The translations under genes and the position numbers were made by a program. A stretch of DNA of 64,000 nucleotides, from IMG/VR virus record IMGVR_UViG_3300033121_001921, positions 16,537-80,536 of that record; one strand, given 5' to 3'. The notes beneath the pieces are model-generated. The model was not told where the DNA came from and did no database searches. It worked only from the letters and a program-made list of their open reading frames with translations. Positions 6,434-64,000 of the stretch are shown here, one piece after another. Position 1 is the first letter of the stretch; every line of letters begins with the position of its first letter. Origin of the DNA: a virus (lineage: Duplodnaviria > Caudoviricetes).

Positions 6434-6804
6434 AACATCCAAATAGTGAATAGGAACTTCATCCACAATCTCATGCTTCTCATACAAAAGAATATTCTTT
6501 CCACCAAATTCCCAAGACTGATGTGAAGTGGATTCTAGATCAGACTGTCCGGATTCCTTTCTTCGAATTGAATTGGGATTTGTATAGAATCTTGATATGA
6601 TGCCTACAAGCATGTCCAAATTAGATTGACACTCAGCTGAATTTTCAAAAAATTTTGATATAGATAAATAGTCATCGTTTCCTTGAATATTCCACCCCCA
6701 CTTCATTGAATCTGGAATAGATTTTATTATCTCGGAAAGATTAGTCTGAGACATGGATGATATAGATGTTACCACACCTATCAACAAGGATATTTTAATT
6801 TCAT
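6422..6804 (-). CDS. hypothetical secreted/membrane protein with an apparent 1-nt deletion near the start
   Basis: ATG at 6804 overlaps the topoisomerase stop (ATGA); adding one A to the A-run gives MKLKISLLIGVVTSISS, a signal-peptide-like start. Confidence 0.5.
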
Positions 6805-8120
6805 TTGAATTTCTTTTTAAGTTCTGTTAAATCTTCTAAATACATATTCTTTGGAAGGAGAGATTTAGTCTTCTCAAGTTCGGATTTTCTTTCAAGAAAA
6901 TCTTCTTTTATTTTCTCAAACGTTTCCTTAGTCAATGAATTAATTGGCATTCTCAATAAATAGTCATAGTCTCCTTCTATCTTTTCTATATTTAGAGACT
7001 GAATTTGATCTACAATCTCTGATTTTGGTTTATTGTTTATTAAAATTTTCCCATCCAAGATAAATTTGATAAACTTACCTCTGTTACCTAGTAACTTCAA
7101 ATCATGGGCAATTCTCTCAATTAGATAATCCTTCCTCTTCTGATAGTAGGTTAATCTAAACTCTACAAAATACGAAACGATTTCCTCTACTGATTCAAAT
7201 ATTTTCAGCTTTCCGTTTTCATCAAGAGTTGTATATATCTCTGTTGAATATTCAATCAATTTGAACATCTTACATATTTCATGTTCGGACAGTATCTTCC
7301 CCCTATTCAACTTAACAACATAGTCTATATTGGATTTGCTATTATTCTTGAATGAGATTATGTATTTATCATCAACTAAATTATCCAAAATACTCTCATA
7401 CATTTCATATGTAAATGATGGAGGTATTTCTAAAATTCGTAATGTATTTCCAGATAATTCATATCTTCCCTTTATTATCCATCTCTTGGAATTTTCTTCA
7501 TCTTTGGTGAAGCTACCACTGAAATCATAAATTTCAGGAACCATTTCTTTTATTTTTTCTCCATTTACCGCTCTAATGCAATTATCTATTATAGATACAG
7601 GATTTCTATTCAGAATATTCATTGAAAATCCAACAGCAATTCCAGATCCACCATTTATTAAGATCATTGGTATTATTGGTAGATAAAATTTTGGTTCACA
7701 TTTAACCCCATCAATAGTCACATATTCTAATATTTCATTATCTTTGAATATGTAATCAAATGATTCAGAAATTCGAGTAGATATGTACCTAGAACTAGAG
7801 GCATGTGGATTTCTTAACGATCCATATATACCAATTTCTTCCAACATGGGAATATTGTTCTTAAATTTTTGAGCCATGTTAACCACAGCATCTTCAACAG
7901 AAACATTACCATGATGGTACTGAGTTTTGAAAATAACTTTCCCACCTAGAACATTAACTTTTATTTTCTCCCTTTTTTCTGAACTTAAAGAAAATAAAAT
8001 CTTCCTCTGAACAGGCTTCAGTCCATCACAAAAGCTTGGAATTGATCTGTTTTCTATAACATAGAAAGCAAATTTTTTGTAATCATTATCTAGAAAATTC
8101 GAAATACTAACGTTGTTCAT
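6801..8120 (-). CDS. DNA topoisomerase II, GyrA/ParC-like subunit (T4 gp52-like)
   Basis: DGLKPVQRKI, YHHGNVS, SSRY active-site Tyr, GIAVGF. Confidence 0.95.
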   Translation of the reverse strand: MNNVSISNFLDNDYKKFAFYVIENRSIPSFCDGLKPVQRKILFSLSSEKREKIKVNVLGGKVIFKTQYHHGNVSVEDAVVNMAQKFKNNIPMLEEIGIYGSLRNPHASSSRYISTRISESFDYIFKDNEILEYVTIDGVKCEPKFYLPIIPMILINGGSGIAVGFSMNILNRNPVSIIDNCIRAVNGEKIKEMVPEIYDFSGSFTKDEENSKRWIIKGRYELSGNTLRILEIPPSFTYEMYESILDNLVDDKYIISFKNNSKSNIDYVVKLNRGKILSEHEICKMFKLIEYSTEIYTTLDENGKLKIFESVEEIVSYFVEFRLTYYQKRKDYLIERIAHDLKLLGNRGKFIKFILDGKILINNKPKSEIVDQIQSLNIEKIEGDYDYLLRMPINSLTKETFEKIKEDFLERKSELEKTKSLLPKNMYLEDLTELKKKFK

Positions 8121-9825
8121 TTTTGTATATCCATTTTTTATTACCCGCCCCCCATATTAAATTGTATTTGCGGCTTTTCATTATTTCATATTCTGTTAAA
8201 TTTTTGTTATATCCATCTTTTATTAATTTTTTCTTATTAAAATTAAATCTGTGGTACTTTTTTTGGCCTATTGACCAGTAATAATTAATTGATTCTCCAT
8301 CGAATTCAAATCCCATTTTTCTGTACATGTCACCAGAATAATATGAATTATCAGAATAGGACACAACTATATCTGGTTTATAGAATTTCAAAAAGTACTT
8401 AAATAATCTAGAATATCCTCCAACAACACTTGTATTTATTTTATTGCAAAATCTCACAAGTTCTAAATTTTTTTTACCGTTGATGTATCTAGTATTAAAA
8501 CACATAACAGATACAATCTCATCTGATAATTTCAAACAAATATTGTATTTGCATTTTATTCCACCCTGAATATGATTATTTTCTAAAAATTCAAATGATT
8601 CATTATTACCAATCTCAAATACATTGCATTTTCTGGCAAATATTTTAGACGATTTACCTACCCTGTTCAAAATTATTGACTTAACAATGTTCTTTTTAAG
8701 AATCCAATCATCTTCCCATATTTGTATCAAATCTATTCCGATATCTGAGCAGAATCTCTTCTTTTCTAGGTGATATCTTTTAGATTTATAATCATCACAA
8801 TGCCAATATAAACCATTATATTCTATTCCGATATTAAGATCAGGCAACACAATATCTATCTCTATCCCATTTAAAAATTCTCTATCATTGAACAAAACAT
8901 TATCAATTTGAATATCTCTCTTTATCCAATCAAAAATTTCGGATTGACCTCCAGAAAAAGATCTTAATTTATTACATTCTAAACAGATAACTTTTCCATT
9001 TCGCAGTCTTTCATTCATTAGAGCACAATCTATATCAAATTCTTTTTCACACACTAAATGGTTTAGTCTGACTGATATCGGACAATTGACCCATTCTATG
9101 AATGAATAATCATTTCCAATCCTATTAGATATAGATATTTTATATTTTTCAGCGGAAATTTTCTTACAAATATCCGAAGATTGGTAATTATCGGCACCAT
9201 ATTTTTCCCTATTTGTTTCTAGTGTTTTTTTTATTGCCTCTGGAGATCTCAGTGTAGATCTAACACCATATTTATCAAATATTCTTTTAAAAAAATCTGT
9301 TTTGATCAGATCATTTTTCATCGGATTGGTATCTCCATATCTTTCTATATTGGTCTGTTTGATCTTATTTTTTACCTCCTCAGATTGAGAAGCATATTCA
9401 AATCCATATTTTTCAATATTTGTCTTCTTGGCCTTTTCTATGGACTTTTCAGATAATAGAGGCGACTTGAATCCATATTTATCAATAAATGTTTTCTCTA
9501 TCTTTTCTATTATTTCTGGTGATTTGGACGCATTATCATATCCAAATTTTTCCATACATGTTTTCTCATATTTAAAAATTGAGCATTTATGGGAGCAAGC
9601 AAATAAATTATGACTCTTGATATTACCCAAATAGGTTTGGTATTTCAATTCTTTTTCTTTATAGCAAAAATCACAAATGGCTGTTACCAGAACAGTACTG
9701 CAATCAGATAGATACTTTACATCTATATTCATTATCTCAGATAAGGTAGATTCGATTCCATCATTAATCAGCAGATCCTTGTATCTCTTATTTATTTTAA
9801 CTCTTATCGTTTTTGTCTTCAACAT
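8107..9825 (-). CDS. free-standing putative homing endonuclease (Zn ribbon, KYG repeats, Vsr/PD-(D/E)XK-like domain)
   Basis: CDFC...CSHKC, repeated KTNIEKYG units, EIDIVLPDLNIGIEYNGLYWH; lies between the two topo II genes. Confidence 0.75.
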   Translation of the reverse strand: MLKTKTIRVKINKRYKDLLINDGIESTLSEIMNIDVKYLSDCSTVLVTAICDFCYKEKELKYQTYLGNIKSHNLFACSHKCSIFKYEKTCMEKFGYDNASKSPEIIEKIEKTFIDKYGFKSPLLSEKSIEKAKKTNIEKYGFEYASQSEEVKNKIKQTNIERYGDTNPMKNDLIKTDFFKRIFDKYGVRSTLRSPEAIKKTLETNREKYGADNYQSSDICKKISAEKYKISISNRIGNDYSFIEWVNCPISVRLNHLVCEKEFDIDCALMNERLRNGKVICLECNKLRSFSGGQSEIFDWIKRDIQIDNVLFNDREFLNGIEIDIVLPDLNIGIEYNGLYWHCDDYKSKRYHLEKKRFCSDIGIDLIQIWEDDWILKKNIVKSIILNRVGKSSKIFARKCNVFEIGNNESFEFLENNHIQGGIKCKYNICLKLSDEIVSVMCFNTRYINGKKNLELVRFCNKINTSVVGGYSRLFKYFLKFYKPDIVVSYSDNSYYSGDMYRKMGFEFDGESINYYWSIGQKKYHRFNFNKKKLIKDGYNKNLTEYEIMKSRKYNLIWGAGNKKWIYKNEQR

Positions 9826-11653
9826 ATACCAATTTATTTTTTCTTAAATTAGATTCATCTCCGAACCAAATATTGATATCATTTTGATATCCATCATTTG
9901 GATCAAATTTGATAAGTTTGGTATTTTGAATTAAATCCTTGAACTCTGCTGATTCTAGAGATCCCAAACCCTTTTTATAATCTATTTCATAATTGTATAT
10001 ATTGTTTTTTTCTATCCATTTGTTGTATTCGTCGTACGTGTAAAAATAAATCTTTTCTCCCTTTCCATTCTTTTTACTAACTACCAATAGAGGTGTAAGT
10101 GCTCTATAGATCATATTCAATTTGAATAGATTATCCCACATGCTAAAGAAATTCAATAGTAGACCACAGATACTATCACCATCAGTATCCATATCAGAAC
10201 ATATTATTATCTTTCCATATCTGAATCCACTGATATCTGATGGATCAAAAAGATTCAACCCAATTGATTGTATCAAATTTTTTGCTTCTTCTTTCTCCAA
10301 TATCTTTTTTTTACTCATTCCATTTGTATTGACAAATTTGCCTTTAAGGGAATAAGCAGCTTGAGTATTAGGATCCCTGTATTTTCTAAAATCTCCAATA
10401 GCTGACAATCCCTCCATTATGAACAATTCACATTTGGTTCTAATTGGAGATTGACAATCTATTAATTTTTCAACCTTGGTTCTCTTTTTTAAATCTCTCT
10501 GAAGCTTATTTTCTTCTGCTAATTTTTTTTGATCGATCCAATCTAATATAGATTGAACTATTTCGGATTTTAGTATTGATTTTATTGTTTTATCAGTTAC
10601 TTGATAAGTAGATCCGAAGTCTTTCACTTCTGTGATGAGTTTCTCTTTTGTTTGAGAAGAAAATGATGGATTAACAATCGTGGAGTTAATAAAAATGAAT
10701 ATATGATTCTTTATTTCTGACGGCTTAACATCGACTTTGTGCTTTTTTTGAAAGAAATCCCTGACCTCTGATATTATCTGACTTAGAATGTAATCAACAT
10801 GATTCCCACCGTCATACGTTTCTGTTGAATTAACAAATGATATTTGTTGAAATCCTGAATTAGATGGTGAGATTGAAATCGACCAAGATTTCTCTTTATT
10901 GTTTTCAAAAAAGTAATCATTGGTATATAATTTAACATAGTCCTCAAAGGATTTGATATTTATCAAAGAATCGTTCAGGTATATTTTAAGATTTGGATTA
11001 CATCCAGCAATATCATACACCCTTTTCTCTATCATTTTATAATTATCATCATTTATACCATCTAGTCCAAATCTTTCAAAATCAGGAATAAATGAAATTT
11101 CTGTATGGTTCTTTGTGCTTTTTATGATTTTAGGAACACTCCTTTCGGTCATGTTATTTTTGAACGTTTGAAAGAATTGCTTCTTACCATCACAGGTCGA
11201 TATTGTAAATTCCTTTGAAAATATATTCACACAGGATGATCCCACGCCATTTGTACCAGACCAAGTTCTTGATTCATCATCAGAGAAATTAGACCCAGAC
11301 TTCATATTTGAAAAAACCATCTCTGGGACCCATTCGTTATGTTCTTTATGTTTCTCAACTGATATTCCACCATTGTCCCAAACAGATATTTTATTATCCC
11401 TTATCAAAACTTTTATTGTATTGATCTTAGTTCCAATTCTTTTGGATTCATCTATTGAATTTGTTATTATCTCATCAAATAGTTTAATAAATGCAGGTAT
11501 ATAAACTATTTCTTTCCTGATCATTGACCCATCACTGATAACATACTTCGATGATATGTTAGGATTTATGGATCCTAAATACATCGATGGTCTTAATAAA
11601 ACATGTTCCTGATCCGTTAATTTTTTATACTTCTCCTCTATCTTCTTCGCCAT
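9797..11653 (-). CDS. DNA topoisomerase II, GyrB/ParE-like ATPase+Toprim subunit (T4 gp39+60-like)
   Basis: EIITNSID, GTNGVGS, EGLSA, DMDTDG, YKKGLGS. Confidence 0.95.
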   Translation of the reverse strand: MAKKIEEKYKKLTDQEHVLLRPSMYLGSINPNISSKYVISDGSMIRKEIVYIPAFIKLFDEIITNSIDESKRIGTKINTIKVLIRDNKISVWDNGGISVEKHKEHNEWVPEMVFSNMKSGSNFSDDESRTWSGTNGVGSSCVNIFSKEFTISTCDGKKQFFQTFKNNMTERSVPKIIKSTKNHTEISFIPDFERFGLDGINDDNYKMIEKRVYDIAGCNPNLKIYLNDSLINIKSFEDYVKLYTNDYFFENNKEKSWSISISPSNSGFQQISFVNSTETYDGGNHVDYILSQIISEVRDFFQKKHKVDVKPSEIKNHIFIFINSTIVNPSFSSQTKEKLITEVKDFGSTYQVTDKTIKSILKSEIVQSILDWIDQKKLAEENKLQRDLKKRTKVEKLIDCQSPIRTKCELFIMEGLSAIGDFRKYRDPNTQAAYSLKGKFVNTNGMSKKKILEKEEAKNLIQSIGLNLFDPSDISGFRYGKIIICSDMDTDGDSICGLLLNFFSMWDNLFKLNMIYRALTPLLVVSKKNGKGEKIYFYTYDEYNKWIEKNNIYNYEIDYKKGLGSLESAEFKDLIQNTKLIKFDPNDGYQNDINIWFGDESNLRKNKLVYVEDKNDKS

Positions 11654-51049: not shown

Positions 51050-52418
51050 GTGATAAAGTGTATGATTTGTAATTTAATGTATAAAGGACTAGCGGGACAT
51101 CTGAAATCGAAGCATAATATATCCACCAAAGAATATAAATTAAAATTCCCAAATTCCACGACCCTATCCAAAGAAAGCTTATCAAAAATAATAAAGGATA
51201 AAAATAAAAAGTGTATTCACTGTGATAATACATTTCTTTCTAAAGATCCTAGAAATCTAACATGTAGTAAAAAATGTAGATATGATCACAGATCTTCCAA
51301 AACGAAAAGGAATAAAAAGAAGCAAAAACTACATTGATATAAAATGTCATTATTGTAATAAAGAAAAATCCATGTTAAAATACAGAGAGGGTGGTAAAAA
51401 TTTTTGCAATAAAGATTGCTATTCCAATTATCATAAATCTCCAAAAATTACCATCAAATGCAAATATGCAAAATGCCAAAATTCATTTGAGAGGTACAAG
51501 AAAGAAAAAACAAAATATTGTTCCAGAATTTGCTATAAGCTCGACTATAGTGAAGACAGGCAGGATTTTAACACAAATAGTAACTATCGAAAGGGATACT
51601 ACACATCTCTAAGGGATGGGTCTAAAAAATGGTTCGATAATCGATACGAGTTGAGTAGAATGAAACAATTAGACATGGATAAAAATGTTTTAGAATGGAC
51701 AAAAAACAAAATAAAAATAAGATATACTGGAGAGGACAATAAAGAGCATATTTATACCCCAGATTTAATTATAAGATATAAAGACGAAACAATTATTGAA
51801 GAAATAAAAGAAAGAATTACCAAAATAGATGTTCTTAAAATGGAATCAGCTATTCCATTTTTGAAAAATATGAACATAGAATATAAAATAATTCAAAAAA
51901 ATAACATATACGATGATTATCTAGATCCAATTATTGAAATCTACGAAAATAAATTTGGATCATTTCAAAGAATATCACTAATATATTCATTTATGAAGAT
52001 GGCAAAAACCATATCTGATAGATCGACTTGCATAAGAAGGAAAGTAGGGTGTTTAATAGCTCCACAAAACTTATATAATATATCAGCAATTGGATATAAT
52101 GGATCTTTACCAGGAAAAGAGAATGGATGTATTTCTATGGGATCTGGAAAATGTGGATGTATTCATGCGGAAATTAACGCATTATCAAAATTCAAAGAAT
52201 TTAATAAGTCCGAGACATATATATTGTTTTGCACCCTATCTCCATGCATGAACTGTTCATCAGAAATCCTAAACTATCCAATAAAAAAAGTTATCTATTT
52301 GGAAGGATATAGAGACACTTCTGGAATAAGACATCTAAAGAAAAATGGAATATCTGTGATAAAATACCAAGAATTGGTAGATAAAAACAACACCGGATAT
52401 GAAATCCCTAGGAGATAA
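51050..52418 (+). CDS. Zn-finger/TnsA-like endonuclease fused to a dCMP deaminase, with an apparent +1 indel at about 51300
   Basis: CxxC repeats; YTPDLIIRY...EEIK; RSTCIRRKVGC, HAEINAL, PCMNC. Confidence 0.8.
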
Positions 52419-55491: not shown

Positions 55492-55545
55492 ACATAACGT
55501 CCGATGATAAACAATCGTTTTAATGTTGTTTATCATTTGTTATGT
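55492..55545 (+). repeat. hairpin H1 (near-identical to H14)
   Basis: acataac-gtccg-atgataaacaa/ttgtttatcat-tt-gttatgt. Confidence 0.9.
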
Positions 55546-55625
55546 GTAGGTGTGGATTATTAAGGTAGAATGTTTAATCGAAGAACTGAACAAAAATTTT
55601 AAAAGAAAAAGAAGGGTGAGAAGTT

Positions 55626-55907
55626 TTAATTCTTAAAGATTAATGAAAAATCATAGTTATCATATCCTTCTACAATTCTTATTTTTACACCTGTTATATG
55701 TCCGAATGAGCCATACCCAAATTCTTTACCTGTTGATTTTGTTATTTGTCTCCATTCAGTTTTGGAAATATTGTGAATAGGTATATCCTTACCTAAAATA
55801 TCTTCCATCTCCTTTAATGATTTTTCATAGTGTTCATCTTTTGGTTTCCCTATAATTAATCCAGGAAACATATTTTTGCTGTGAATTTCTTCAATTCTTA
55901 TTTTCAT
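55626..55907 (-). CDS. cassette hypothetical protein
   Basis: 93 aa ORF. Confidence 0.65.
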   Translation of the reverse strand: MKIRIEEIHSKNMFPGLIIGKPKDEHYEKSLKEMEDILGKDIPIHNISKTEWRQITKSTGKEFGYGSFGHITGVKIRIVEGYDNYDFSLIFKN

Positions 55908-55954
55908 AATTTTTTATTTTTAAAGATTTCTTTTCAATGTCTTTAAGTTCGTCT

Positions 55955-56080
55955 TTACCTCTTCCAAATTGTTACTACTTCAATAACACCACCACTCTTA
56001 ATATCGGTGTTTATACTTTCGTTTAAGAATTGTCCAAAATTCTTAACTTTATTTATTTGTTCTCTCATTTCTTTACTCAT
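55955..56080 (-). CDS. 41 aa ORF MSKEMREQINKVKNFGQFLNES..., starting in the H2 loop
   Basis: Hand translation; CTS-like KNFGQFLNES. Confidence 0.5.
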   Translation of the reverse strand: MSKEMREQINKVKNFGQFLNESINTDIKSGGVIEVVTIWKR

Positions 56081-56159
56081 AATTTTACTTTACTATCAAG
56101 TTTAGTGGTAAATTGAAAGTTCATCAAAGCAAACCTTCTCATACACCCAACCGTTATGT
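55996..56159 (-). repeat. hairpin H2 (left arm and loop like H7; right arm degenerate)
   Basis: acataac-ggttg-ggtgtatgagaaggtttgct on minus; GTT box apparently ATT. Confidence 0.65.
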
Positions 56160-56176
56160 GTAATAAAAAATAATTA

Positions 56177-56539
56177 TTATCCACTAAATGAAGCATCTCT
56201 ATCAGATACCATCCAACCATTGAGCATACTGGCTGGTCCATATATTCTCAAATTTTTAATGCTTGTTTTTTCTAAATGTTTTTTAATAGAATATAAAAGA
56301 TTTTTCACATTAGCTCTGCGAATACCATTATTAGATTCAGTTCTTAAAAGTTCTAATTTAGCAACTGAACTTGCTTTAAGTCCAAAATTAGTTTTATCTA
56401 TTATTGATTCCAAATAATCTAACATTTCATCATTAGAACCATTTTTTATTAAATTATCTATTTCTTTAATATATTTACGGTTTAGTGTTTTCCTAATTAA
56501 AGATTCATTAAGTTCATCAAATCTTTTGATATGTTTCAT
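56177..56539 (-). CDS. cassette protein with CTS-like start
   Basis: MKHIKRFDELNES. Confidence 0.75.
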   Translation of the reverse strand: MKHIKRFDELNESLIRKTLNRKYIKEIDNLIKNGSNDEMLDYLESIIDKTNFGLKASSVAKLELLRTESNNGIRRANVKNLLYSIKKHLEKTSIKNLRIYGPASMLNGWMVSDRDASFSG

Positions 56540-56564
56540 ATTGTATTAATTATTTTTTAATAAC

Positions 56565-56665
56565 ACATAACAAGGTGTATATGTAAGTTTTTTATTAGTT
56601 TTTTATTAGTGTATATATTAAAAAAAAATGTGAAAAAAACCTACATATACACCCAACCGTTATAG
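56565..56665 (-). repeat. hairpin H3 (loop contains AATATATAC)
   Basis: ggtgtatatgtaggttttt/aaaaacttacatatacacc stem. Confidence 0.9.
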
Positions 56666-56712
56666 GTAATTGTTTTAAAAATTCCCACACTCCTTAACAA
56701 TTTTCTTATTAA

Positions 56713-56868
56713 TTAACCTTGTTTATATTCTTGCAATACATACGGTAAATTCATTGAACTTACTCTGTTTTTGCTTTCATAAATAAATTGCCCGTGTTCG
56801 TTTTTTACGGCATCAATTTCTTTACAAAATTCTAATTCGTCTTTAATTAATTCGGTCATTGCATCCAT
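56713..56868 (-). CDS. small cassette protein MDAMTELIKDEL...
   Basis: Hand translation, 51 aa; possible 1-nt deletion at the 3' end. Confidence 0.55.
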   Translation of the reverse strand: MDAMTELIKDELEFCKEIDAVKNEHGQFIYESKNRVSSMNLPYVLQEYKQG

Positions 56869-56913
56869 TTTATTTAAGTTTAATTTACCAACGCTAATTT
56901 TTAAAACAACTAC

Positions 56914-57041
56914 CTATAACATAGTGTATATGTAATGTGAGGTTCAGTTGTATATTCAAAGTTTATATTTCTAATCAACATTTGTGGTTAAGTCAAGTTT
57001 CGTGTTTCAAATCTCACACTACATATACACAATCGTTCTGC
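56914..57041 (-). repeat. hairpin H4 (near-identical to H10, inverted)
   Basis: gtgtatatgtagtgtgag/ctcacattacatatacac stem. Confidence 0.9.
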
Positions 57042-57045
57042 GCAA

Positions 57046-57347
57046 TCATGAAACGAACAGCCGAACGGTCACAGGGCCTTCGCGGAAGTCGCCAGTGATT
57101 GTGCCGTCCACGTATTGCTCGTCACCCTTGCGGAAGTTCTTCCACTTCCATGGGAGCGGCGTTGCATCGTAATCGCCTTGACCAAGGCCAACGGCAGCAT
57201 TGAGCAGGTGCTGCCTGCCGTGAAGCCTTTGGCCTCAGCCCACGCCTGGGCCGCGTAGTATGCCTCCCATGTTCCCTTGTTATCGAACGTGGCCTGCTCC
57301 ACCACTGGCTTATTGACCCTGACCGTTCCACCTATTCGCTTTCGCAT
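57046..57347 (-). CDS. GC-rich (about 61%) cassette gene with a 1-nt frameshift at about 57178
   Basis: MRKRIGGTV...LALVK/GDYDATPLPWKWKNF...GPVTVRLFVS*. Confidence 0.7.
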
Positions 57348-57381
57348 TATTGTTGAGTTTTGAGTGAGTTGAAAAGACCGC

Positions 57382-57459
57382 GCAGAACATGCAGCTATGC
57401 GGCATGCCTCAACACAGGTCCAACGCGCTGCACGCCGCATAGCTGCTGAACCGTTATAT
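57382..57459 (-). repeat. hairpin H5 (GC-rich)
   Basis: gcagctatgcggc/gccgcatagctgc perfect 13-bp stem. Confidence 0.9.
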
Positions 57460-57537
57460 TCAATTAAACAAAAAATTATGAGTTTTTAATTGCTTCTAAT
57501 ATTTGTTGTTATATTTAGTAAAAATTAATTTATACCT

Positions 57538-57702
57538 ATGAAAAAAGAACAATATGCAGTTTATGAAAAAGAACCAAGACACGGAAAAGATAAAAACGGA
57601 GTGATACTTGCACCATTTAACACTAAGGAAGAAGCCGAAGAAGCAGGTAAGAAATATGGTTATTATGGTGATAATTACTATGTAGATAAACTCATAAATT
57701 AA
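57538..57702 (+). CDS. 54 aa cassette protein MKKEQYAVYEKEPRHG...
   Basis: Hand translation. Confidence 0.65.
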   Translation: MKKEQYAVYEKEPRHGKDKNGVILAPFNTKEEAEEAGKKYGYYGDNYYVDKLIN

Positions 57703-57712
57703 TTTTTATCGA

Positions 57713-57847
57713 ATATAACGGTTCTCAGATATATTTAGGTTTTCATTTTAATATATACACTAAAATAACAAAAGAAGATGAAACTTTTAAAAACACAAAA
57801 ACAGTTGAACGAAGCATCGGAAAACTTGAATATATCTGATGTTAGTG
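57713..57847 (+). repeat. hairpin H6 (loop holds AATATATAC and an ATG)
   Basis: tcagatatatttaggtttt/aaaacttgaatatatctga stem. Confidence 0.9.
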
Positions 57848-58119
57848 AGAGTAAAAAATTAGACAAAACTCTATCAAACCCCGAGTTCGATAATCTTATC
57901 GATAAATTATCTGAGATGGGTGTATCACATGATGACGTAGAAAAGTTTAAAGAGTATTCAATCGAATTTGAGAACGAAAATGATGAATATGAAAAGAAGG
58001 CGATTTTAGATACATTCTCATTAGATATATCAATGGATTATGAAAGTTTATACGATGAAGTGGAAGATGATATATCAGACTTATATTATGAGACAGGATT
58101 AGACCCTATGGAGTTTTAA
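57778..58119 (+). CDS. acidic cassette protein starting inside H6
   Basis: MKLLKTQKQLNEASENLNISD|V; GTT is in frame. Confidence 0.75.
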   Translation: MKLLKTQKQLNEASENLNISDVSESKKLDKTLSNPEFDNLIDKLSEMGVSHDDVEKFKEYSIEFENENDEYEKKAILDTFSLDISMDYESLYDEVEDDISDLYYETGLDPMEF

Positions 58120-58130
58120 TTTTTTATTCT

Positions 58131-58225
58131 TACTAACGTTTGGGTGTATGAGAAGGTTTGCTTTGATGAACTTTCAAAATCACCACTAAACTTGATAGCA
58201 AACTTTCTTATACACCTTGTTATAT
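58131..58225 (+). repeat. hairpin H7
   Basis: ggtgtatgagaaggtttgct/agcaaactttcttatacacc stem. Confidence 0.9.
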
Positions 58226-58343
58226 GCTGTGCGGATTTAACCACTAAACTACCTACGAAGAACAGAACCTTTTTGTTTTATTTTTGTGGGTGGAAAATTA
58301 AAATTTGAATATTTATATATATATAATAAAACTATTTAATAGT

Positions 58344-58799
58344 ATGGAATTAAGAAAATTTATAGCAACTACTATACGTGAATATTTGAATGAAAGTCAA
58401 ATCGAACAAATTAGAAATACTGGGCTATCAGTTAGTAATAAAATTGAAGGTGGCTTTTTAACTAAAAAAGAAGTTGATGAACTTCAAAGAGAAATTGAAT
58501 CAAATTATGATACAACACCTAAATTTGGACAAGATAGTAATGACATAAGAAAACGTTTGTATAATTATGATAATCCTTATGCAGAAAAAGATATTAATGG
58601 TGTTAATTTAAGAATAGTACAAGGTTTGATAGAGGGTGAGCCATATTCTGGTAATAGAAGAAAAACTTGGTTATTATATGCTGATGGTAAAATTGTTGGT
58701 AAATTTTATAAAGTGGATGATATTAAAAAAGTTATTAAACATATTGAAGATAATTTAGTTAAATCAATATCTAATAATCCAAAAGAATTGGGTGGGTAA
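58344..58799 (+). CDS. cassette protein with CTS-like start
   Basis: MELRKFIATTIREYLNES, behind a TATATATA tract. Confidence 0.75.
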   Translation: MELRKFIATTIREYLNESQIEQIRNTGLSVSNKIEGGFLTKKEVDELQREIESNYDTTPKFGQDSNDIRKRLYNYDNPYAEKDINGVNLRIVQGLIEGEPYSGNRRKTWLLYADGKIVGKFYKVDDIKKVIKHIEDNLVKSISNNPKELGG

Positions 58800-58858
58800 A
58801 AATAAAACAAAAAGAATGTTACGATGAAACTTAATATGAAGTACCAATGTAGCATTGC

Positions 58859-58988
58859 ATATAACGGCTGCGTGTATGAAACGTAATGGATTAGATGCAC
58901 TAAACTTTAAACATAAAATGAACTATAATAGAAATATGAACTTTAAATATACCACTGAAACCATTATGTTTTATACACGATGTTAGCA
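58859..58988 (+). repeat. hairpin H8
   Basis: gtgtatgaaacgtaatgg/ccattatgttttatacac stem. Confidence 0.9.
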
Positions 58989-59077
58989 GTAGTACGGATT
59001 TAAACCACAAATGCTCAATCGAAGAACTGAACCTTTTTTTCTTTTCTTTTTGTGCGGTGGGAAAATAAAATTGAATA

Positions 59078-59875
59078 ATGGAACGAAATATAATTTATAA
59101 CGAAGATTGTAAGATTACCTTGAAAAAACTTCAAGATAAATCTATTGATGGTGTAATTACATCACCACCATATAATATAAATACTGAAAGAAGCGATTGT
59201 TATTACAATAACGGATATTCTGAATTGGATGGGTTAAGTGAAAATGATTATCTTGAAGTAAGAACTAATGAATTTAAAGAATTTTCAAGAGTGATAAATG
59301 ATACTGGTGTAATTTGCTATAACATATCTTATGCAAAAGAAAATCCAATACTACCAACATTGTTGGTTGCTAAAATTCACAATGAAACTGATTTAACTAT
59401 TGCGGATATTATTTGTTGGAAGAAACCAAATGCTATACCTTTTCAGACTTCACCAACTAAATTGAGTAGGATTACTGAATTGATTTATGTTTTTGTGAAG
59501 AAAGAGCATTTACACACATTCAAAACCAACAAGGAAGTAAGTAAGGTAAATAAAAAAACAGGTCAAAAGTTTTACAAAAACTATGTGAATTATATTGAAG
59601 CAAGAAACAATGACGGATACCAATGTCAATTGAAAGCATCATTTTCGCAAGATTTAGTAAATCAATTAATAAATATTTATTTTCCAAAAGGTAGTTTAAT
59701 TTACGAACCGTTTACTGGAATAGGGACTACACAATTAAGTTGTATTGAAAATGAATGTGATTACATTGGTAGTGAATTAGTAAAAGACCATTATGAAATT
59801 GCTTTAGAGAGGGTTAGAGAAAAAAGAAAAGAAAAAGAATTTAATCTAATAACTTCATTCGGAGATGGGATGTAG
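59078..59875 (+). CDS. N6/N4 DNA methyltransferase (beta-class motif order), solitary
   Basis: TSPPYN precedes YEPFTGIGTT. Confidence 0.9.
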   Translation: MERNIIYNEDCKITLKKLQDKSIDGVITSPPYNINTERSDCYYNNGYSELDGLSENDYLEVRTNEFKEFSRVINDTGVICYNISYAKENPILPTLLVAKIHNETDLTIADIICWKKPNAIPFQTSPTKLSRITELIYVFVKKEHLHTFKTNKEVSKVNKKTGQKFYKNYVNYIEARNNDGYQCQLKASFSQDLVNQLINIYFPKGSLIYEPFTGIGTTQLSCIENECDYIGSELVKDHYEIALERVREKRKEKEFNLITSFGDGM

Positions 59876-59881
59876 TATTAC

Positions 59882-59939
59882 TGCTAACGGACAGGCATTG
59901 CCGCCGTTGCATTTGAATGGCGGCAATGCAGTGTTAGGC
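59882..59939 (+). repeat. hairpin H9 (GC-rich)
   Basis: gcattgccgcc/ggcggcaatgc stem. Confidence 0.9.
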
Positions 59940-59971
59940 CACGTTCTTTTAACTTTCAAAAGCAAAAGGCA

Positions 59972-60235
59972 ATGAAGCGATTTCACGAAACCGCTGATGG
60001 CAAGTTCATTGAACTAAAGGACTTGACAGACGAGCACCTTGCCAACATCATAAAGATGATTGAACGCAAGGCCAAGGATGGCATTGATCTCGTGTTCGGC
60101 GGAGGACACGGTGATTACGAAGAAATGTGGGGTGATGTTGAACACCTGCATGGGCAGGAAGTCTTTGACCACTTCGGGTACGAGAAGTACAAGAAAGAGC
60201 AGCGTCGTCGTATTCGTCTTCGGAATGTGGCCTAA
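59972..60235 (+). CDS. cassette protein (about 48% GC); stop TAA lies inside the terminal TAAC box
   Basis: ELKDLTDEHLANII...; GCC TAA C. Confidence 0.75.
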   Translation: MKRFHETADGKFIELKDLTDEHLANIIKMIERKAKDGIDLVFGGGHGDYEEMWGDVEHLHGQEVFDHFGYEKYKKEQRRRIRLRNVA

Positions 60236-60358
60236 CGATTTGGTGTATATGTAGTGTGAGATTTGAAACACTAAACTTGACTGAACTACAAATGTTGATT
60301 AGAATGATGAACTTGAATATACCACTGAACCTCACATTACATATACACCTTGTTATGT
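60230..60358 (+). repeat. hairpin H10
   Basis: ggtgtatatgtagtgtgag/ctcacattacatatacacc stem. Confidence 0.9.
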
Positions 60359-60536
60359 GTAGGTGTGCTTATTTATCACCAACCTTCAATCGGAGAACTG
60401 AAAGAAAATTTTAGAAAAAAGAAGGGAGGGAAATTTTTAATAATTTTTAATCTTTGTGTCCTTAAATTTTTTATTTAAGAATTTTTTGTTATATTTGTAG
60501 AGTTGAATTAGTATTAATAACTAAATAAAAAATAAA

Positions 60537-61115
60537 ATGAATATAAATGAATTAACAAACCCAATAAAAGTGTGTGATTTATCATTAAACGAAAATGACA
60601 ATGATAGAGCATTGTGGAATATAACATGGAACAGAGATGTTGATAACACAATCCTTTCACAGAAAAATGGTAGATGTTATTATATTGTTGTTAATGGTGA
60701 AATATTCAAGATAGGATATTCAGATTGTGATGGTGGTATAAAATCAACCATAGGCTCATATAGAAGTTCTGGTAATTCCGGGAGACCTTCTGATAGAACA
60801 CATGGTATTCATGTTTTAATAGCGGAGCAATTATTATTAGGCAATAAAGTTGAAATATACTTTCATTATAATCCACTTATAAATGTTAATTTAACACTTA
60901 TGGATGGTTCTGTTGTTTCAATAGAAAATTCAATTTCTGGTAAAATATTAGAATTAAAAAACATGGAAATATATAAAAATAAACATAATGATTTTCCTGT
61001 TTGGAATTTACAAGAGGCTGGAAAACCTTGGCCGACACACATACAAGAAAGTAGAAATAACTTATTATCGGGAAATCCTTTAAAATTAAATGAAATAAAA
61101 GAAAGATTATTTTAA
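60537..61115 (+). CDS. putative GIY-YIG restriction-type endonuclease (Hpy188I-like)
   Basis: GRCYYIVVNGEIFKIGYSD...IKSTIGSY...VEIYF pattern, recalled similarity only. Confidence 0.55.
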   Translation: MNINELTNPIKVCDLSLNENDNDRALWNITWNRDVDNTILSQKNGRCYYIVVNGEIFKIGYSDCDGGIKSTIGSYRSSGNSGRPSDRTHGIHVLIAEQLLLGNKVEIYFHYNPLINVNLTLMDGSVVSIENSISGKILELKNMEIYKNKHNDFPVWNLQEAGKPWPTHIQESRNNLLSGNPLKLNEIKERLF

Positions 61116-62011
61116 TCTTTCTTTTTAACTATTAATATTTCGTGTGATTTTTTAACTACTTCACTATTGTTCAATTCTATTCTATTCTTACCAATTCTTT
61201 TTTCACCATTACTCATAGAATAATTCCACTCTGGAAAATAAAAATCAAAATCTTTGTAGTATTCTCTTATTGTTTCACAATTATTATACGAAAGGACAAA
61301 ATCACCATTATGTGATAATAGTAAATCTCTTAATAATTCGTGATCAAAACCACTATGATGAACATCTATATTTTTCATCGGATACATACCTTTGTGCATT
61401 TTATTATCACTATCTTTATCTAAAAAATAAGGTGGGTCAAGATACAAAAAATCGTTTTTATGTTTTATTATAGATTTTTCAAATGGTAATTGTTCAACTT
61501 TTAGATTATCACATTTGAAATCTTTTATTTTATCTATCATAGATCTCCATTTTTTATCATTTAGATAAACACTTGAACCCCAACCTAAATAACCTGGACC
61601 ATAAGAACAATTGTGATTGAAATAATAATATGCTGCCAACTTTATATCATCCAACTTTATTATATTTTCTCTTTTGTAGTGATCAGTATTCCAATCTTTC
61701 AACATTTCTTGCGTCTTATCTAAACACATCAATATTTCTTTAATTCTAATATACTCACTATCTGTTGGTTGTATTTTTAATAACTCATTATACAATTCTT
61801 TTGGTTTGTTTAGTAATATATTCCAAAAATTAACAAGTACATCAAATACATCATATCCAACAACTTCTTTATTTAGGTTTCCTGACCAATGGACTTCAAG
61901 GGATCCACCACCAATAAAGGGAGATACTATTTTATCATATTTTTCAACAAATGGTGTTATCTGTTTAATGGCTTTACTTTTACCACCAGCATATCTTAAT
62001 AATGTTTTCAT
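61112..62011 (-). CDS. D12/Dam-class N6-adenine DNA methyltransferase
   Basis: LRYAGGKSK, SPFIGGGS, YLDPPY. Confidence 0.92.
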   Translation of the reverse strand: MKTLLRYAGGKSKAIKQITPFVEKYDKIVSPFIGGGSLEVHWSGNLNKEVVGYDVFDVLVNFWNILLNKPKELYNELLKIQPTDSEYIRIKEILMCLDKTQEMLKDWNTDHYKRENIIKLDDIKLAAYYYFNHNCSYGPGYLGWGSSVYLNDKKWRSMIDKIKDFKCDNLKVEQLPFEKSIIKHKNDFLYLDPPYFLDKDSDNKMHKGMYPMKNIDVHHSGFDHELLRDLLLSHNGDFVLSYNNCETIREYYKDFDFYFPEWNYSMSNGEKRIGKNRIELNNSEVVKKSHEILIVKKKD

Positions 62012-62137
62012 AAATAAATTTCTTTTTCTTTTATATATTAAATTCCAAAATTAGTTTTCTGTATTTTCTGTAAAATAAATAAAACTTTATGAAATAATTA
62101 ATATATAAATTATAGTAGAAAAATTAAAAATAGTTTG

Positions 62138-62287
62138 ATGAAAAAGAGACGAGATAAAGAATACTTTACATTAAATCCAGAAGTTAGAAAAGAATTTCTA
62201 AAACATATAGAGGAAAATAACCTAAATAAATCAAAGTTGATAGAAACTCTTATAGAGGAATATATGAAAAAAGTTAAAGAAAAATAA
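62138..62287 (+). CDS. 49 aa ribbon-helix-helix-like putative regulator
   Basis: MKKRRDKEYFTLNPEVRKEF...NKSKLIETLIEEYM, hand translation. Confidence 0.55.
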   Translation: MKKRRDKEYFTLNPEVRKEFLKHIEENNLNKSKLIETLIEEYMKKVKEK

Positions 62288-62395
62288 AAAAATTTCTTAT
62301 CTTTGTGTTCTTAAAAAATTATTAAAAATGTGCGGTGGGTTTTTTCTAAAATTTTCTAACACAAAAGTTGATTCGGAGGACAGAACCACACTTAC

Positions 62396-62584
62396 ACATA
62401 ACGGTAGGGCGGTTGGCGCAGTGCGTATTATTAACGATAAACTAAATTAGAATGAAAGCAGAAGATTTTTACAAACAACGAAGCAACTCAATAAGGGAGT
62501 TGTGGGCATTATCACCAAAGCAAATTGAATACATAGGTTTGATTATGGAAGAGTATGCAGCATTGCGCCAACCGCCTGTTAGCA
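62396..62584 (+). repeat. hairpin H11 (loop encodes the first part of an ORF)
   Basis: ggcggttggcgcagtgc/gcattgcgccaaccgcc stem. Confidence 0.9.
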
Positions 62585-62676
62585 GCAGTTTTTCATCTGA
62601 AAGCGACCATATTTGTATGATGTACTTAGATAAGCAAAGAACTTGTATGGTTTGCGGTAAACAAAATTGCTGCTAA
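62452..62676 (+). CDS. 74 aa protein spanning H11 and a 100-bp cassette
   Basis: ...ALRQPP|VSSS...CMVCGKQNCC, stop in TAAC. Confidence 0.7.
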   Translation: MKAEDFYKQRSNSIRELWALSPKQIEYIGLIMEEYAALRQPPVSSSFSSESDHICMMYLDKQRTCMVCGKQNCC

Positions 62677-62791
62677 CGTTTTGCGTATATACGCAGTGCA
62701 ACCGAAAACTTTATTTGAAACACAAAAATTGAAATTATGATAAAAAATTTGATTGAAAAACTGAAAGCATTGCGTATATACGCTGTTATAA
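62671..62791 (+). repeat. hairpin H12 (ATG in loop)
   Basis: gcgtatatacgcagtgc/gcattgcgtatatacgc stem. Confidence 0.9.
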
Positions 62792-62991
62792 GCCGTTTTT
62801 TATTTCCATACAAAACTTGGATTGAAATGAGAGAAAAATCTAAAGACGAGTATGGAGAAAAATTATGCTACTGTGGACATACCTATAAATGCACTTGTTC
62901 CAATCCAGATAAAACTTTGTTTAAGGAAAGTATAAAACGTGGTAGTATAATTTTATGGGATAAAGAGAACGGTTGGAAAAATGGCTTATAA
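62737..62991 (+). CDS. 84 aa protein starting inside H12
   Basis: MIKNLIEKLKALRIYA|VISR...CYCGHTYKCTC, stop in TAAC. Confidence 0.72.
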   Translation: MIKNLIEKLKALRIYAVISRFLFPYKTWIEMREKSKDEYGEKLCYCGHTYKCTCSNPDKTLFKESIKRGSIILWDKENGWKNGL

Positions 62992-63116
62992 CGGCTGACG
63001 CTATACGAAGGTGGGGATTAAGATGCACAACCCTTGCTTACCGCACAAAAGCAAATTAGATGCACAACTGTACAATTTTGGCACACAGCCCCACTTTTGT
63101 ATAGCGTATGTTATAG
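62986..63116 (+). repeat. hairpin H13
   Basis: acgctatacgaaggtgggg/ccccacttttgtatagcgt stem. Confidence 0.9.
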
Positions 63117-63134
63117 GCTGTTAAAAAGAATTTT

Positions 63135-63386
63135 ATGACAACTGTTAAAGAACTTAGAGAATTACTCGCAACAATGCCTGATGATTATGAAGTGGTTATT
63201 TATCCGAAATATTCATCCGATAAAGTTGATGGATATAGAAAGCACAGATTTAGAATTGACCAAGTTTGTGAACAAGAACCGTATGCTGTATCAATTAAAG
63301 ACGATGCTGAAAAATTAAAAACTTATTTCGGGAGTAAAGATTATGAAGAATATGAGGTAAATAACCACGTAGCTATTCTTTTTTAA
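63135..63386 (+). CDS. cassette hypothetical protein
   Basis: MTTVKELRELLATMPDDYEV. Confidence 0.75.
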   Translation: MTTVKELRELLATMPDDYEVVIYPKYSSDKVDGYRKHRFRIDQVCEQEPYAVSIKDDAEKLKTYFGSKDYEEYEVNNHVAILF

Positions 63387-63390
63387 TTGC

Positions 63391-63444
63391 CTATAACGTC
63401 TGATGATAAACAATCGTTTTAATGTTGTTTATCATTTGTTATAT
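63391..63444 (+). repeat. hairpin H14 (near-identical to H1)
   Basis: atgataaacaa/ttgtttatcat stem. Confidence 0.9.
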
Positions 63445-63477
63445 TTTAGTATCAAAAATTTTATACAAATTAAAAAT

Positions 63478-63849
63478 ATGAAAAAAGAAAAAGCGGAAAA
63501 GGAAATAAAACAACTATTAGATAGTGGTTTAAGTTTTGATTACAAAATTGATATGAATATCATAAATAAACAAATGTTCTGTATTGAACGGGAAGGATTT
63601 TCTATGGGCGATATTATATCAAAACTTAAAGAAGGTGAGAAAATTTTGTTCTATCTTAACGATGGTTATAGATCAGATTGGGATGATAAGAAAGGATATT
63701 CACCTCTTTATCAAATAAAAGATAGAGAAGGAAGTATCTATTGGAAACATGACACTTATGGAGAGTGTGTTCGTATAGATAGTGATATGGGTTCAATCAG
63801 AGAATGGTGTAACGAATTAAACGAAATTTATAGTATAAAAAATTCATAA
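63478..63849 (+). CDS. cassette hypothetical protein
   Basis: Start set at MKKEKAEKEI. Confidence 0.7.
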   Translation: MKKEKAEKEIKQLLDSGLSFDYKIDMNIINKQMFCIEREGFSMGDIISKLKEGEKILFYLNDGYRSDWDDKKGYSPLYQIKDREGSIYWKHDTYGECVRIDSDMGSIREWCNELNEIYSIKNS

Positions 63850-63864
63850 AATTTTTGATATTGA

Positions 63865-63995
63865 ATATAACGGTTGCAGATATACTCAATTTGGGATTAA
63901 ATAGTAGAAACTTTAAAATTAAGATAAAATGAATAAAGAGAAACAAGAGTGGGATAAACATCTAACACCCAAATTGGGTATATCTGATGTTATGC
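63865..63995 (+). repeat. hairpin H15 (ATG in loop)
   Basis: cagatatactcaatttggg/cccaaattgggtatatctg stem. Confidence 0.9.
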
Positions 63996-64000
63996 AACGT
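63929..64000 (+). CDS. partial ORF starting inside H15
   Basis: MNKEKQEWDKHLTPKLGISD|VMQR, GTT in frame. Confidence 0.6.
   Translation, partial: MNKEKQEWDKHLTPKLGISDVMQR

Follow-up and report, generated by a model that had tools for sequence, protein, structure and literature searches.

Background

Genes are carried between recombination sites in several described systems. A Xer-type recombinase acts on a folded single-stranded hairpin, at dif, in the case of CTX-phi, and in the pdif modules of Acinetobacter plasmids gene modules lie between inversely oriented recombinase sites; both use the host XerC/D and one conserved dif-like sequence. In an integron cassette the gene precedes its attC, and crossover takes place at G|TT of R′. 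Part of the attC lies at the start of the integrated cassette (PMC3575428). In T4-type phages, small accessory genes in the hyperplastic regions of large genomes are bounded by promoter-stem-loop elements (PeSLs), and mini-circles have been proposed as vectors of these cassettes (PMC2839356, PMC4122927). Here we describe a cassette array at the end of a 64,000-nucleotide stretch of phage DNA (positions 16,537 to 80,536 of IMG/VR virus record IMGVR_UViG_3300033121_001921, Caudoviricetes; hereafter the window), in which cassette bodies alternate with hairpin sites and each body begins and ends with inverted sequences of its own. We consider it probable that each cassette has a folded recombination site of its own, with an extended R-box whose two arms these inverted ends represent.

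Full-text literature searches returned partial glimpses, and no description of a phage-borne integron-like system with an Xer-like recombinase; the system is apparently undescribed. According to the available excerpts of Qi et al. (2023; PMC9892861), clusters of attC sites lacking integron-integrases (CALINs) and attC sites occur in phage genomes, with methyltransferase cassettes among them, and were read as components of bacterial integrons; own-end arms, a reversed unit and a cognate recombinase are not described in those excerpts.

Arrays of this type resemble integrons in that their cassettes lie head to tail with AAC...GTT-closed palindromes between them, diverse in sequence and conserved in structure; part of each cassette's own site stands at its other end, so that own ends pair; insertion, in related phages, occurs at a fixed site beside a gene for a recombinase of the Xer/IntI superfamily; and recombinase-less arrays are common. 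Site polarity relative to the recombinase gene is also the same, on the 5′-AA|C strand, only the cargo genes being turned round. Unlike in integrons, however, the hairpin stands upstream of its gene, the genes point towards the recombinase, and the breakpoints fall at TAAC. The R-box has at least 15 bp with an obligatory G.T at position 11, as opposed to 7 bp (RYYYAAC/GTTRRRY); the internal loop measures 4-5 × 1-2 nt, whereas the integron spacer is roughly symmetric, and no extrahelical bases of the integron type were recognised, although these were not scored separately. The recombinase has about 265 aa and apparently lacks the IntI-specific insertion, and the carriers are phages of Bacteroidota. 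In contrast to CTX-phi and pdif, the sites are arrayed, the arms are cassette-specific and the recombinase is encoded by the element. The likeness to PeSLs extends to the small accessory genes, the hyperplastic regions of large phages and the stem-loop bounds, but PeSLs are homologous repeats which recombine by homology, while here only a few fixed bases are common to the sites, exchange is precise to the base at TAAC, and arrays of related loci are capped by a tyrosine recombinase.

Results

Cassette bodies pair with their own ends

Between 55496 and the contig end, the array comprises 15 sites that follow a single design: YTAAC-(4-5 nt)-stem...stem-(1-2 nt)-GTTA, with stem sequence varying from site to site and size classes of about 46, 85 and 122 bp. 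As imperfect palindromes closed by AAC and GTT and diverse in sequence, both these 15 sites and 414 oriented sites from other loci (see below) agree with the definition used for integron-type sites. A first-pass annotation, made from the letters alone, had proposed that every complete body carries a GTT...AAC inverted repeat of its own which finds no match across a hairpin. Such ends are present in 13 of 13 bodies, with arms of 9 to about 27 bp extending well past the shared GTTA/TAAC (Table 1). Own ends pair better than random pairs of cassette ends: the mean score of own pairs was 12.65, as compared with 4.98 (standard deviation 1.77) for the 156 non-own pairs (Mann-Whitney p = 1e-9), not one of 200,000 permutations reached the observed own-pair mean, and for 11 of the 13 starts the best partner was the own one. 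Pairs across a hairpin scored 4.7, the value given by the conserved GTTA/TAAC alone.

If, as in integrons, part of the site lies at the cassette start, own ends are expected to pair, ends across a hairpin are not, and circles should fold into one stem. Units circularised in silico and folded with DNA parameters gained -11.8 kcal/mol beyond the hairpin; the gain in array context was -3.1 kcal/mol, and that of non-own arm pairs -3.7 ± 2.2 kcal/mol. Own-end pairing and the circularised folds thus support the earlier suggestion of a circle or single strand in which arms and hairpin form one long stem. Two further statements of the first-pass annotation stand in part. Arm sequence is unit-specific, but not strictly unique to each cassette, as there is conservation at positions 4 and 10-12, a fixed mismatch at position 11 with G at the start and T at the end, and recurrence of a few arms in unrelated cassettes, such as GTTATAAGCCGTT, which is present in the window and in LR745206. 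The arms had also been taken as direct evidence of mobility; mobility is indeed supported, by independent joints, homology breaks and the Freya isolates described below, but the evidence from the arms themselves is indirect. The earlier reading did not say which hairpin a body owns, namely that on its GTT side, which precedes the gene. The possibility that body 62785-62992 and an LR745206 cassette are one cassette in two contexts was rejected, because they have arms in common (13-16 nt) but no homology.

Arms and sites in other viral loci

The family of one short window hairpin has at least 118 exact-pattern matches in IMG/VR viral contigs. About 120 such loci and two huge-phage loci formed the survey set and yielded 515 candidate sites, with spacers overwhelmingly of 4-5 × 1-2 nt or the mirror image. 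The automatic site scan, at a stem threshold of 11, missed the sites of Polaribacter phage P12002L, which were found by reading the sequence. When sites were oriented by spacer asymmetry, 272 cassettes lay between like-oriented sites; their own ends scored 10.4, ends across a hairpin 4.9 and random pairs 4.95. Positions 5-10 were matched in 70-83% of these cassettes (29-49% in random pairs), positions 12-15 in 64-77% and positions 16-22 in 40-51%, and position 11 in 6% only, with G in 72% of starts and T in 97% of ends, and never the reverse. The typical arm is therefore 15 bp long, with 10 paired bases, a near-invariant G/T at position 11 and four more pairs. On the complementary strand position 11 becomes a C/A mismatch, so that it can pair, as G.T, on the sense strand only. 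The consensus of 414 sites gives the boxes A-T-T-N5-T-AAC and GTT-A-N5-A-G-T, again 15 bp with G.T at position 11, and T-11, T-1, AAC, G+1 and the TA of the L-box as fixed positions. The longest open reading frame (ORF) runs from the hairpin into the body, along the site polarity, in 257 of 269 cassettes.

Crossover falls on the AAC side of the hairpin

Own-end pairing places the crossover somewhere between the arms and the hairpin, and no finer. Five independent observations put it at the AAC side, and the hairpin consequently belongs to the body on its GTT side. One is the gene direction in 257 of 269 cassettes given above, to which the four loop-started ORFs of the window can be added; the others follow. 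Each of the two GC-rich bodies (57035-57388 and 59933-60236) has a GC-rich hairpin on its GTT side and an AT-rich one on the other. The 87-aa protein encoded by the latter body has homologues that are 61-93% identical. In contigs of 51-55% GC (L010, L011 and L012/L013) its gene follows a site of this type and, in the case of L010 and L012/L013, is enclosed by two of them. DNA alignment of the window with L010, L011 and L012 runs from the AAC left of the upstream hairpin to exactly ...GTGGCCTAAC, and L010, the closest relative, has hairpin stems in common with the window. Metagenome contig L132, which extends the array, begins to match the window only directly past TAAC. Neither of the GC-rich cassette proteins had relatives in back-translated searches of viral contigs, while a word-based protein search found some. 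More distant homologues of the GC-rich gene (L005, L008 and L009) were set aside as evidence on unit ends, since they sit in packed operons without sites, as was the Dam homologue of LR756502 as a cassette, which lies outside any array.

Natural gain and loss of units can be followed in assembled contigs from four runs of four studies, placed on the region. Joint 63391>63866, with the overlap TATAACG, skips 474 bp; it was present in two runs, where the shorter side measured 105 and 135 nt. The skipped unit, 63397-63870, consists of hairpin plus body and is precisely missing from these contigs. Two other joints, 62673>63394 and 59884>62399, skip 720 and 2514 bp. All three go from AAC to AAC with 6-7 nt of identity, and several contigs start or stop at TAAC; joints which go back lie away from unit ends. 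Together with the homology breaks and the Freya isolates, these data support the mobility of the cassette units.

A recombinase gene and an attI-like site cap related arrays

Among the ORF families around arrays, a tyrosine recombinase of 264-268 aa is second in frequency only to methyltransferases. It consists of PF00589 and a SAM-like N-terminal domain, with invariant catalytic residues RKHRHY. In all 13 loci that have one, the gene adjoins the array: it lies downstream of the final cassette and is read in the same direction as the cassettes. The protein falls below every curated cut-off: it scores 167-194 bits as XerA-type (cut-off 220), about 140-164 as XerC/D (about 330), and 150-159 with the integron-integrase model (265), the last match being in two pieces. 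Among solved structures, archaeal XerA aligns best, and the alignment with VchIntIA (2A3V) extends no further than about residue 181, which would be expected of a protein without the IntI-specific insertion. A single-protein scan found relatives 38-48% identical in Bacteroidota metagenome-assembled genomes; a run of like-oriented sites directly upstream of the recombinase was seen in only one of the 15 best prokaryote loci, and platforms on host chromosomes were not confirmed.

The last cassette ends in YTAAC, followed by TAKWTTATATA... in place of a hairpin. Two loci with identical recombinase-proximal sequence are divergent right up to that AAC. Such an attI-like site is present both in related loci and in isolates of Freya and Ingeline; the window ends before any such point. 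The cultured phages have 37-40% identical integrases. Across the region, Polaribacter phages Freya_1 and Freya_10 show 100% identity save for 4.9 kb inserted in Freya_10, at exactly ...TTTACAAC|ACCCCTATAAC (...ACAAC|ACCCC), about 50 nt before the start of the integrase. The inserted block has a hairpin site first and TAAC last, with further such sites inside. The ten Freya isolates range from 43,978 to 48,920 bp, and between Freya_1 (L135/L136) and Freya_10 (L133/L137) the whole size difference is the cassette block at the attI-like site. The authors of the Freya genomes took the integrase only as a sign of lysogeny (PMC8776804).

The record and the map of the array

The window takes up the final 64 kb of a virus record of 80.5 kb, for which CheckV gives 28% completeness. 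Its gene content is that of a very large low-GC phage (T4-type topoisomerase II, GroEL, UvdE, NusG, DNA methylases), and the nearest sequenced relatives are "uncultured phage" genomes of 635-642 kb. The stretch is present in runs of 13 studies, mainly of wastewater and activated sludge. Outside the array, an HNH homing endonuclease gene (572 aa, 8107-9825) lies between the genes for the large and medium subunits of topoisomerase II, in the region 6801-11653, and 51282-52418 codes for a 378-aa protein with an N-terminal TnsA-like endonuclease domain and a dCMP/cytidine deaminase domain. The array itself is mapped in Table 1. An Rfam search gave just one sub-threshold miRNA-like match, on one hairpin.

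Table 1. Hairpin sites and cassette bodies of the array (window positions). Spacers are in nt; own-end figures are identities/length of anchored alignments.
Feature	Position	Strand	Own ends	Spacers	Remarks
Hairpin site 1, AAC..GTT, first of array	55496..55541	+		4 × 1	46 bp; near-copy of 63395-63440
Truncated hairpin site, reversed polarity	56090..56155	-			Inverted partial copy of 58135-58221; polarity from spacers
Cassette body, inverted block	56153..56571	-	36/45 gapped, about 24 contiguous		ORF 56177-56539, minus
Hairpin site, reversed polarity	56569..56661	-		2 × 5
Cassette body	56659..56920	-	24/25		ORF 56713-56868, minus
Hairpin site, reversed polarity	56918..57037	-			Inverted copy of site 60234-60354
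GC-rich cassette body	57035..57388	-	9/9		ORF 57069-57350, minus
GC-rich hairpin site, reversed polarity	57386..57455	-		2 × 6	Goes with GC-rich body 57035-57388
Cassette body, right edge of inverted block	57453..57719	+	27/33 gapped		Apart from own hairpin; ORF 57538-57702
Hairpin site	57717..57843	+		5 × 1	ORF start in loop at 57778
Cassette body	57841..58137	+	19/21, or 27/34 gapped
Hairpin site	58135..58221	+		4 × 1
Cassette body	58219..58865	+	9/9		ORF to 58799
Hairpin site	58863..58984	+		5 × 2
Cassette body with N6/N4 DNA methyltransferase	58982..59888	+	13/14		Methyltransferase 59078-59875
GC-rich hairpin site	59886..59935	+		6 × 3	Homologous to hairpin upstream of same cassette in L010
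GC-rich cassette body	59933..60236	+	13/14		ORF 59972-60235; also in GC-rich contigs L010-L013
Hairpin site	60234..60354	+		5 × 2
2-kb cassette body, three ORFs	60352..62402	+	17/19		Includes Dam methylase (61112-62011, minus)
Long-loop hairpin site	62400..62580	+		4 × 0	ORF start in loop at 62452
100-bp cassette body	62578..62677	+	14/15
Hairpin site	62675..62787	+		5 × 1	ORF start in loop at 62737
Cassette body	62785..62992	+	15/16
Hairpin site	62990..63112	+		5 × 2
Cassette body	63110..63397	+	20/23		ORF 63135-63386
Short hairpin site	63395..63440	+		4 × 1	Family in at least 118 IMG/VR stretches
Cassette body	63438..63871	+	24/27		ORF end 63849
Last hairpin site before contig end	63869..63991	+			ORF start in loop at 63925; array goes on in L132

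The segment 55541-57455 is inverted, as seen from its mirrored spacers, minus-strand genes and flipped G/T polarity; two hairpins within it copy, in inverted form, hairpins that lie further right. It spans three or four units, and contigs of other samples show alternative arrangements there. No simple cassette is present at 55539-56092; at this left edge (55539-56153) the head of a 60352-type cassette is joined to minus-strand ORFs and the truncated hairpin.

Four ORFs start within hairpin loops; their frames pass through the 3′ arm of the stem and then the GTT box before they enter the body. Only in this manner can the 100-bp body 62578-62677 code for a protein. At the other end of the units, the conserved T before AAC yields TAA (59886-59888, 60234-60236, 62675-62677 and others), which ORFs 59972-60235 and 62452-62676 use as their stop, so that coding can reach the unit end. 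Several cassettes have in common a leader just past the 5′ arm, composed of AATCGAAGAACTGAACC, a T-rich run, and then TGTGCGGTGGG or GAAGGGAGGG. It precedes an ORF and is conserved across unrelated phages, being located at 55573-55625, 58236-58293, 59000-59057 and 60385-60440 in the window, at about 32200-32130 (minus strand) in P12002L (L004), and at 6001-6058 in L003; it may be a promoter, a terminator or a regulatory element. At 62400-62580, contigs of other samples retain the stem and swap the loop, with joints from 62422/62429/62435 to 62559/62562, and hairpin loops may thus turn over independently of stems.

Discussion

We propose that the free form of a unit would be a circle, on the sense strand of which the site would read 5′-...A-T-T-N5-T-AAC-G(GTTG)-[hairpin]-(A)T-GTT-A-N5-A-G-T...-3′. 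Folded, it would form one long imperfect stem of R-box, internal loop and hairpin, with an R-box of 15 bp (10 bp, the fixed G.T at position 11, then at least 4 bp), an asymmetric internal loop of 4-5 × 1-2 nt, and a TATA-containing L-box as the hairpin base. Strand exchange by a site-specific recombinase would take place at TAA|C(G), with the 5′ R-box arm on one side and the hairpin on the other, and integration would split the R-box, with GTT-X remaining behind the hairpin at the gene head and X′-AAC at the unit tail. The arms would lie apart in the array because this crossover is 5′ of the hairpin, and for the same reason the unit is a hairpin plus its downstream gene or genes, the mirror image of an integron cassette. 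Arrays would grow at the attI-like double-stranded site (YTAAC|TAKWTTATATA or AAC|ACCCNNATAAC), directly upstream of the gene for the Xer/IntI-like tyrosine recombinase of about 265 aa. The exchange is probably catalysed by this array-linked recombinase. The restriction of position-11 pairing to the sense strand suggests that the substrate is a folded single strand, namely the sense strand, in which position 11 can wobble-pair, and the G.T wobble and the 4-5 × 1-2 nt bulge presumably give the asymmetry that extrahelical bases give in attC.

Several observations weigh against this proposal. The joints locate the exchange only to within TA(T)AACG, and not at a single phosphate or on one strand; no circle junction was present among the assembled contigs, which drop rare forms; and in array context the R-box pairs over just 4-5 bp. 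The 80.5-kb record yielded no recombinase of any type, with neither TIGR02249 nor PF00589 giving a match. LR745206, P12002L and mymlan6-1 have arrays but no recombinase, and LR756500 has a fragment only; the nearest huge-phage relative, LR756502, also lacks a recombinase, and had no site in the one stretch scanned. As to the window, the array runs past the contig end on the very side on which the gene would be expected, which accounts for its not being visible: a search of viral contigs found none that reaches further past position 64000, and the 1.4-kb L132, in which the array continues for at least three complete cassettes, stops short of a recombinase. The window array probably depends on such an enzyme, whose gene would lie past the contig end or which would act in trans. 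The missing recombinases of the other phages imply that many arrays are served in trans or are inactive, integrase-less like CALINs. The LR756500 fragment (L139, 48599-48814) is an 88-aa open frame, covering recombinase residues 32-108 only and far from the array of that genome, and may be a recombinase remnant.

It could be argued that the array is a fragment of an ordinary bacterial-type integron, a CALIN taken up by a phage, with canonical IntI attC sites and incidental long arms. The AAC/GTT triplets closing imperfect palindromes of discrete sizes fit this view, as does own-end complementarity, which integrons have too, and HattCI called one such site, P12002L_attC1, an attC (PMC9892861). 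That site belongs to exactly the family described here, but it was a HattCI-only prediction and the sole one of six sites that IntI1 failed to recombine. The position of genes downstream of hairpins with crossover at the AAC side is the mirror image of gene-attC, the spacers are of 4-5 × 1-2 nt (extrahelical bases not having been scored separately), the linked recombinases fall short of the integron-integrase cut-off and align with VchIntIA only in part, and the matches are numerous in viral contigs, whereas a comparable site run was found in only one of the 15 best prokaryote loci scanned; we therefore regard a CALIN origin as quite improbable. Equally, the arms might be selected as RNA, the 5′-3′ stem closing a transcript or polycistronic segment for processing or stability, with DNA mobility unrelated. 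Position-11 G.T would be G.U in RNA, it is pairable in the sense strand only, its polarity tracks the genes even in the inverted block, and ORFs start within loops. The same polarity is, however, accounted for by a folded sense DNA strand, and an RNA function leaves unexplained the TAAC breaks in inter-genome homology, the deletions in populations, the insertions in isolates, and the recombinase and attI-like site capping arrays. A role in RNA as the sole explanation thus seems very unlikely, while the arms may have a secondary role of this kind.

Explanations that invoke a different enzymology, or none, fare no better. Replication slippage or template switching across the stems, or homologous recombination of intergenic repeats as in T4-type PeSL cassettes, for which PeSL-mediated mini-circles are documented (PMC2839356), would dispense with a dedicated enzyme. 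Stacked stems with the short direct repeat TAACG on either side are of the kind on which slippage classically occurs, the short identity is present at all three joints, and several array-bearing phages lack a recombinase. Yet hairpin and arm sequences differ between units and leave no homology to recombine on; a 55%-GC unit with base-precise ends in a 30%-GC phage, and the Freya insertion at one fixed point beside the integrase, both need site-specific exchange; and the conserved T-11, T-1, AAC, G+1 and L-box TA resemble protein contacts, making an enzyme-free origin highly unlikely. The GTT...AAC terminal inverted repeats of 9-27 bp could also suggest that each unit is a small transposon, similar to a miniature inverted-repeat transposable element, with a transposase recognising its ends. 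We consider this extremely improbable: the arms differ from unit to unit except at a few fixed positions, target-site duplications are absent, the arrangement of the units is strictly head-to-tail with a single hairpin between neighbours, and no transposase is found among the recurrent neighbour families, the tyrosine recombinase being the one recombination enzyme of the ten families annotated.

We thus return to the split R-box of a folded, cassette-specific site. In its widest form, which we hold to be evenly balanced between right and wrong, this reading would make the arrays the Bacteroidota phages' own integron analogue. Its compact Xer-like recombinase, lacking the IntI domain, would act on folded sense-strand sites, in which the 15-bp R-box with its obligatory position-11 G.T and the bulge would fix strand and orientation in place of extrahelical bases; the site, and probably expression signals, would be supplied upstream of the gene; and methyltransferase and accessory genes would move between phages of 30% and 55% GC, the long arms being the footprint of the substrate.

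Conclusions

Integrons, the textbook means by which genes are stockpiled and shuffled, are regarded as bacterial; the arrays described here would represent the same logic in viruses, with another site architecture and a smaller recombinase, in a system widespread enough to be represented in at least 118 IMG/VR stretches. The own-end arms would provide the first precise definition of its substrate, a 15-bp R-box with a fixed G.T at position 11 and crossover at TAA|C, and the system is directly testable in cultured Polaribacter and Cellulophaga phages. It would help to explain the turnover of small accessory genes in large phages, including DNA methyltransferases which protect against restriction, as well as the assembly breaks in these regions, and it would mean that the "integrases" of apparently lytic flavobacterial phages need not imply lysogeny.

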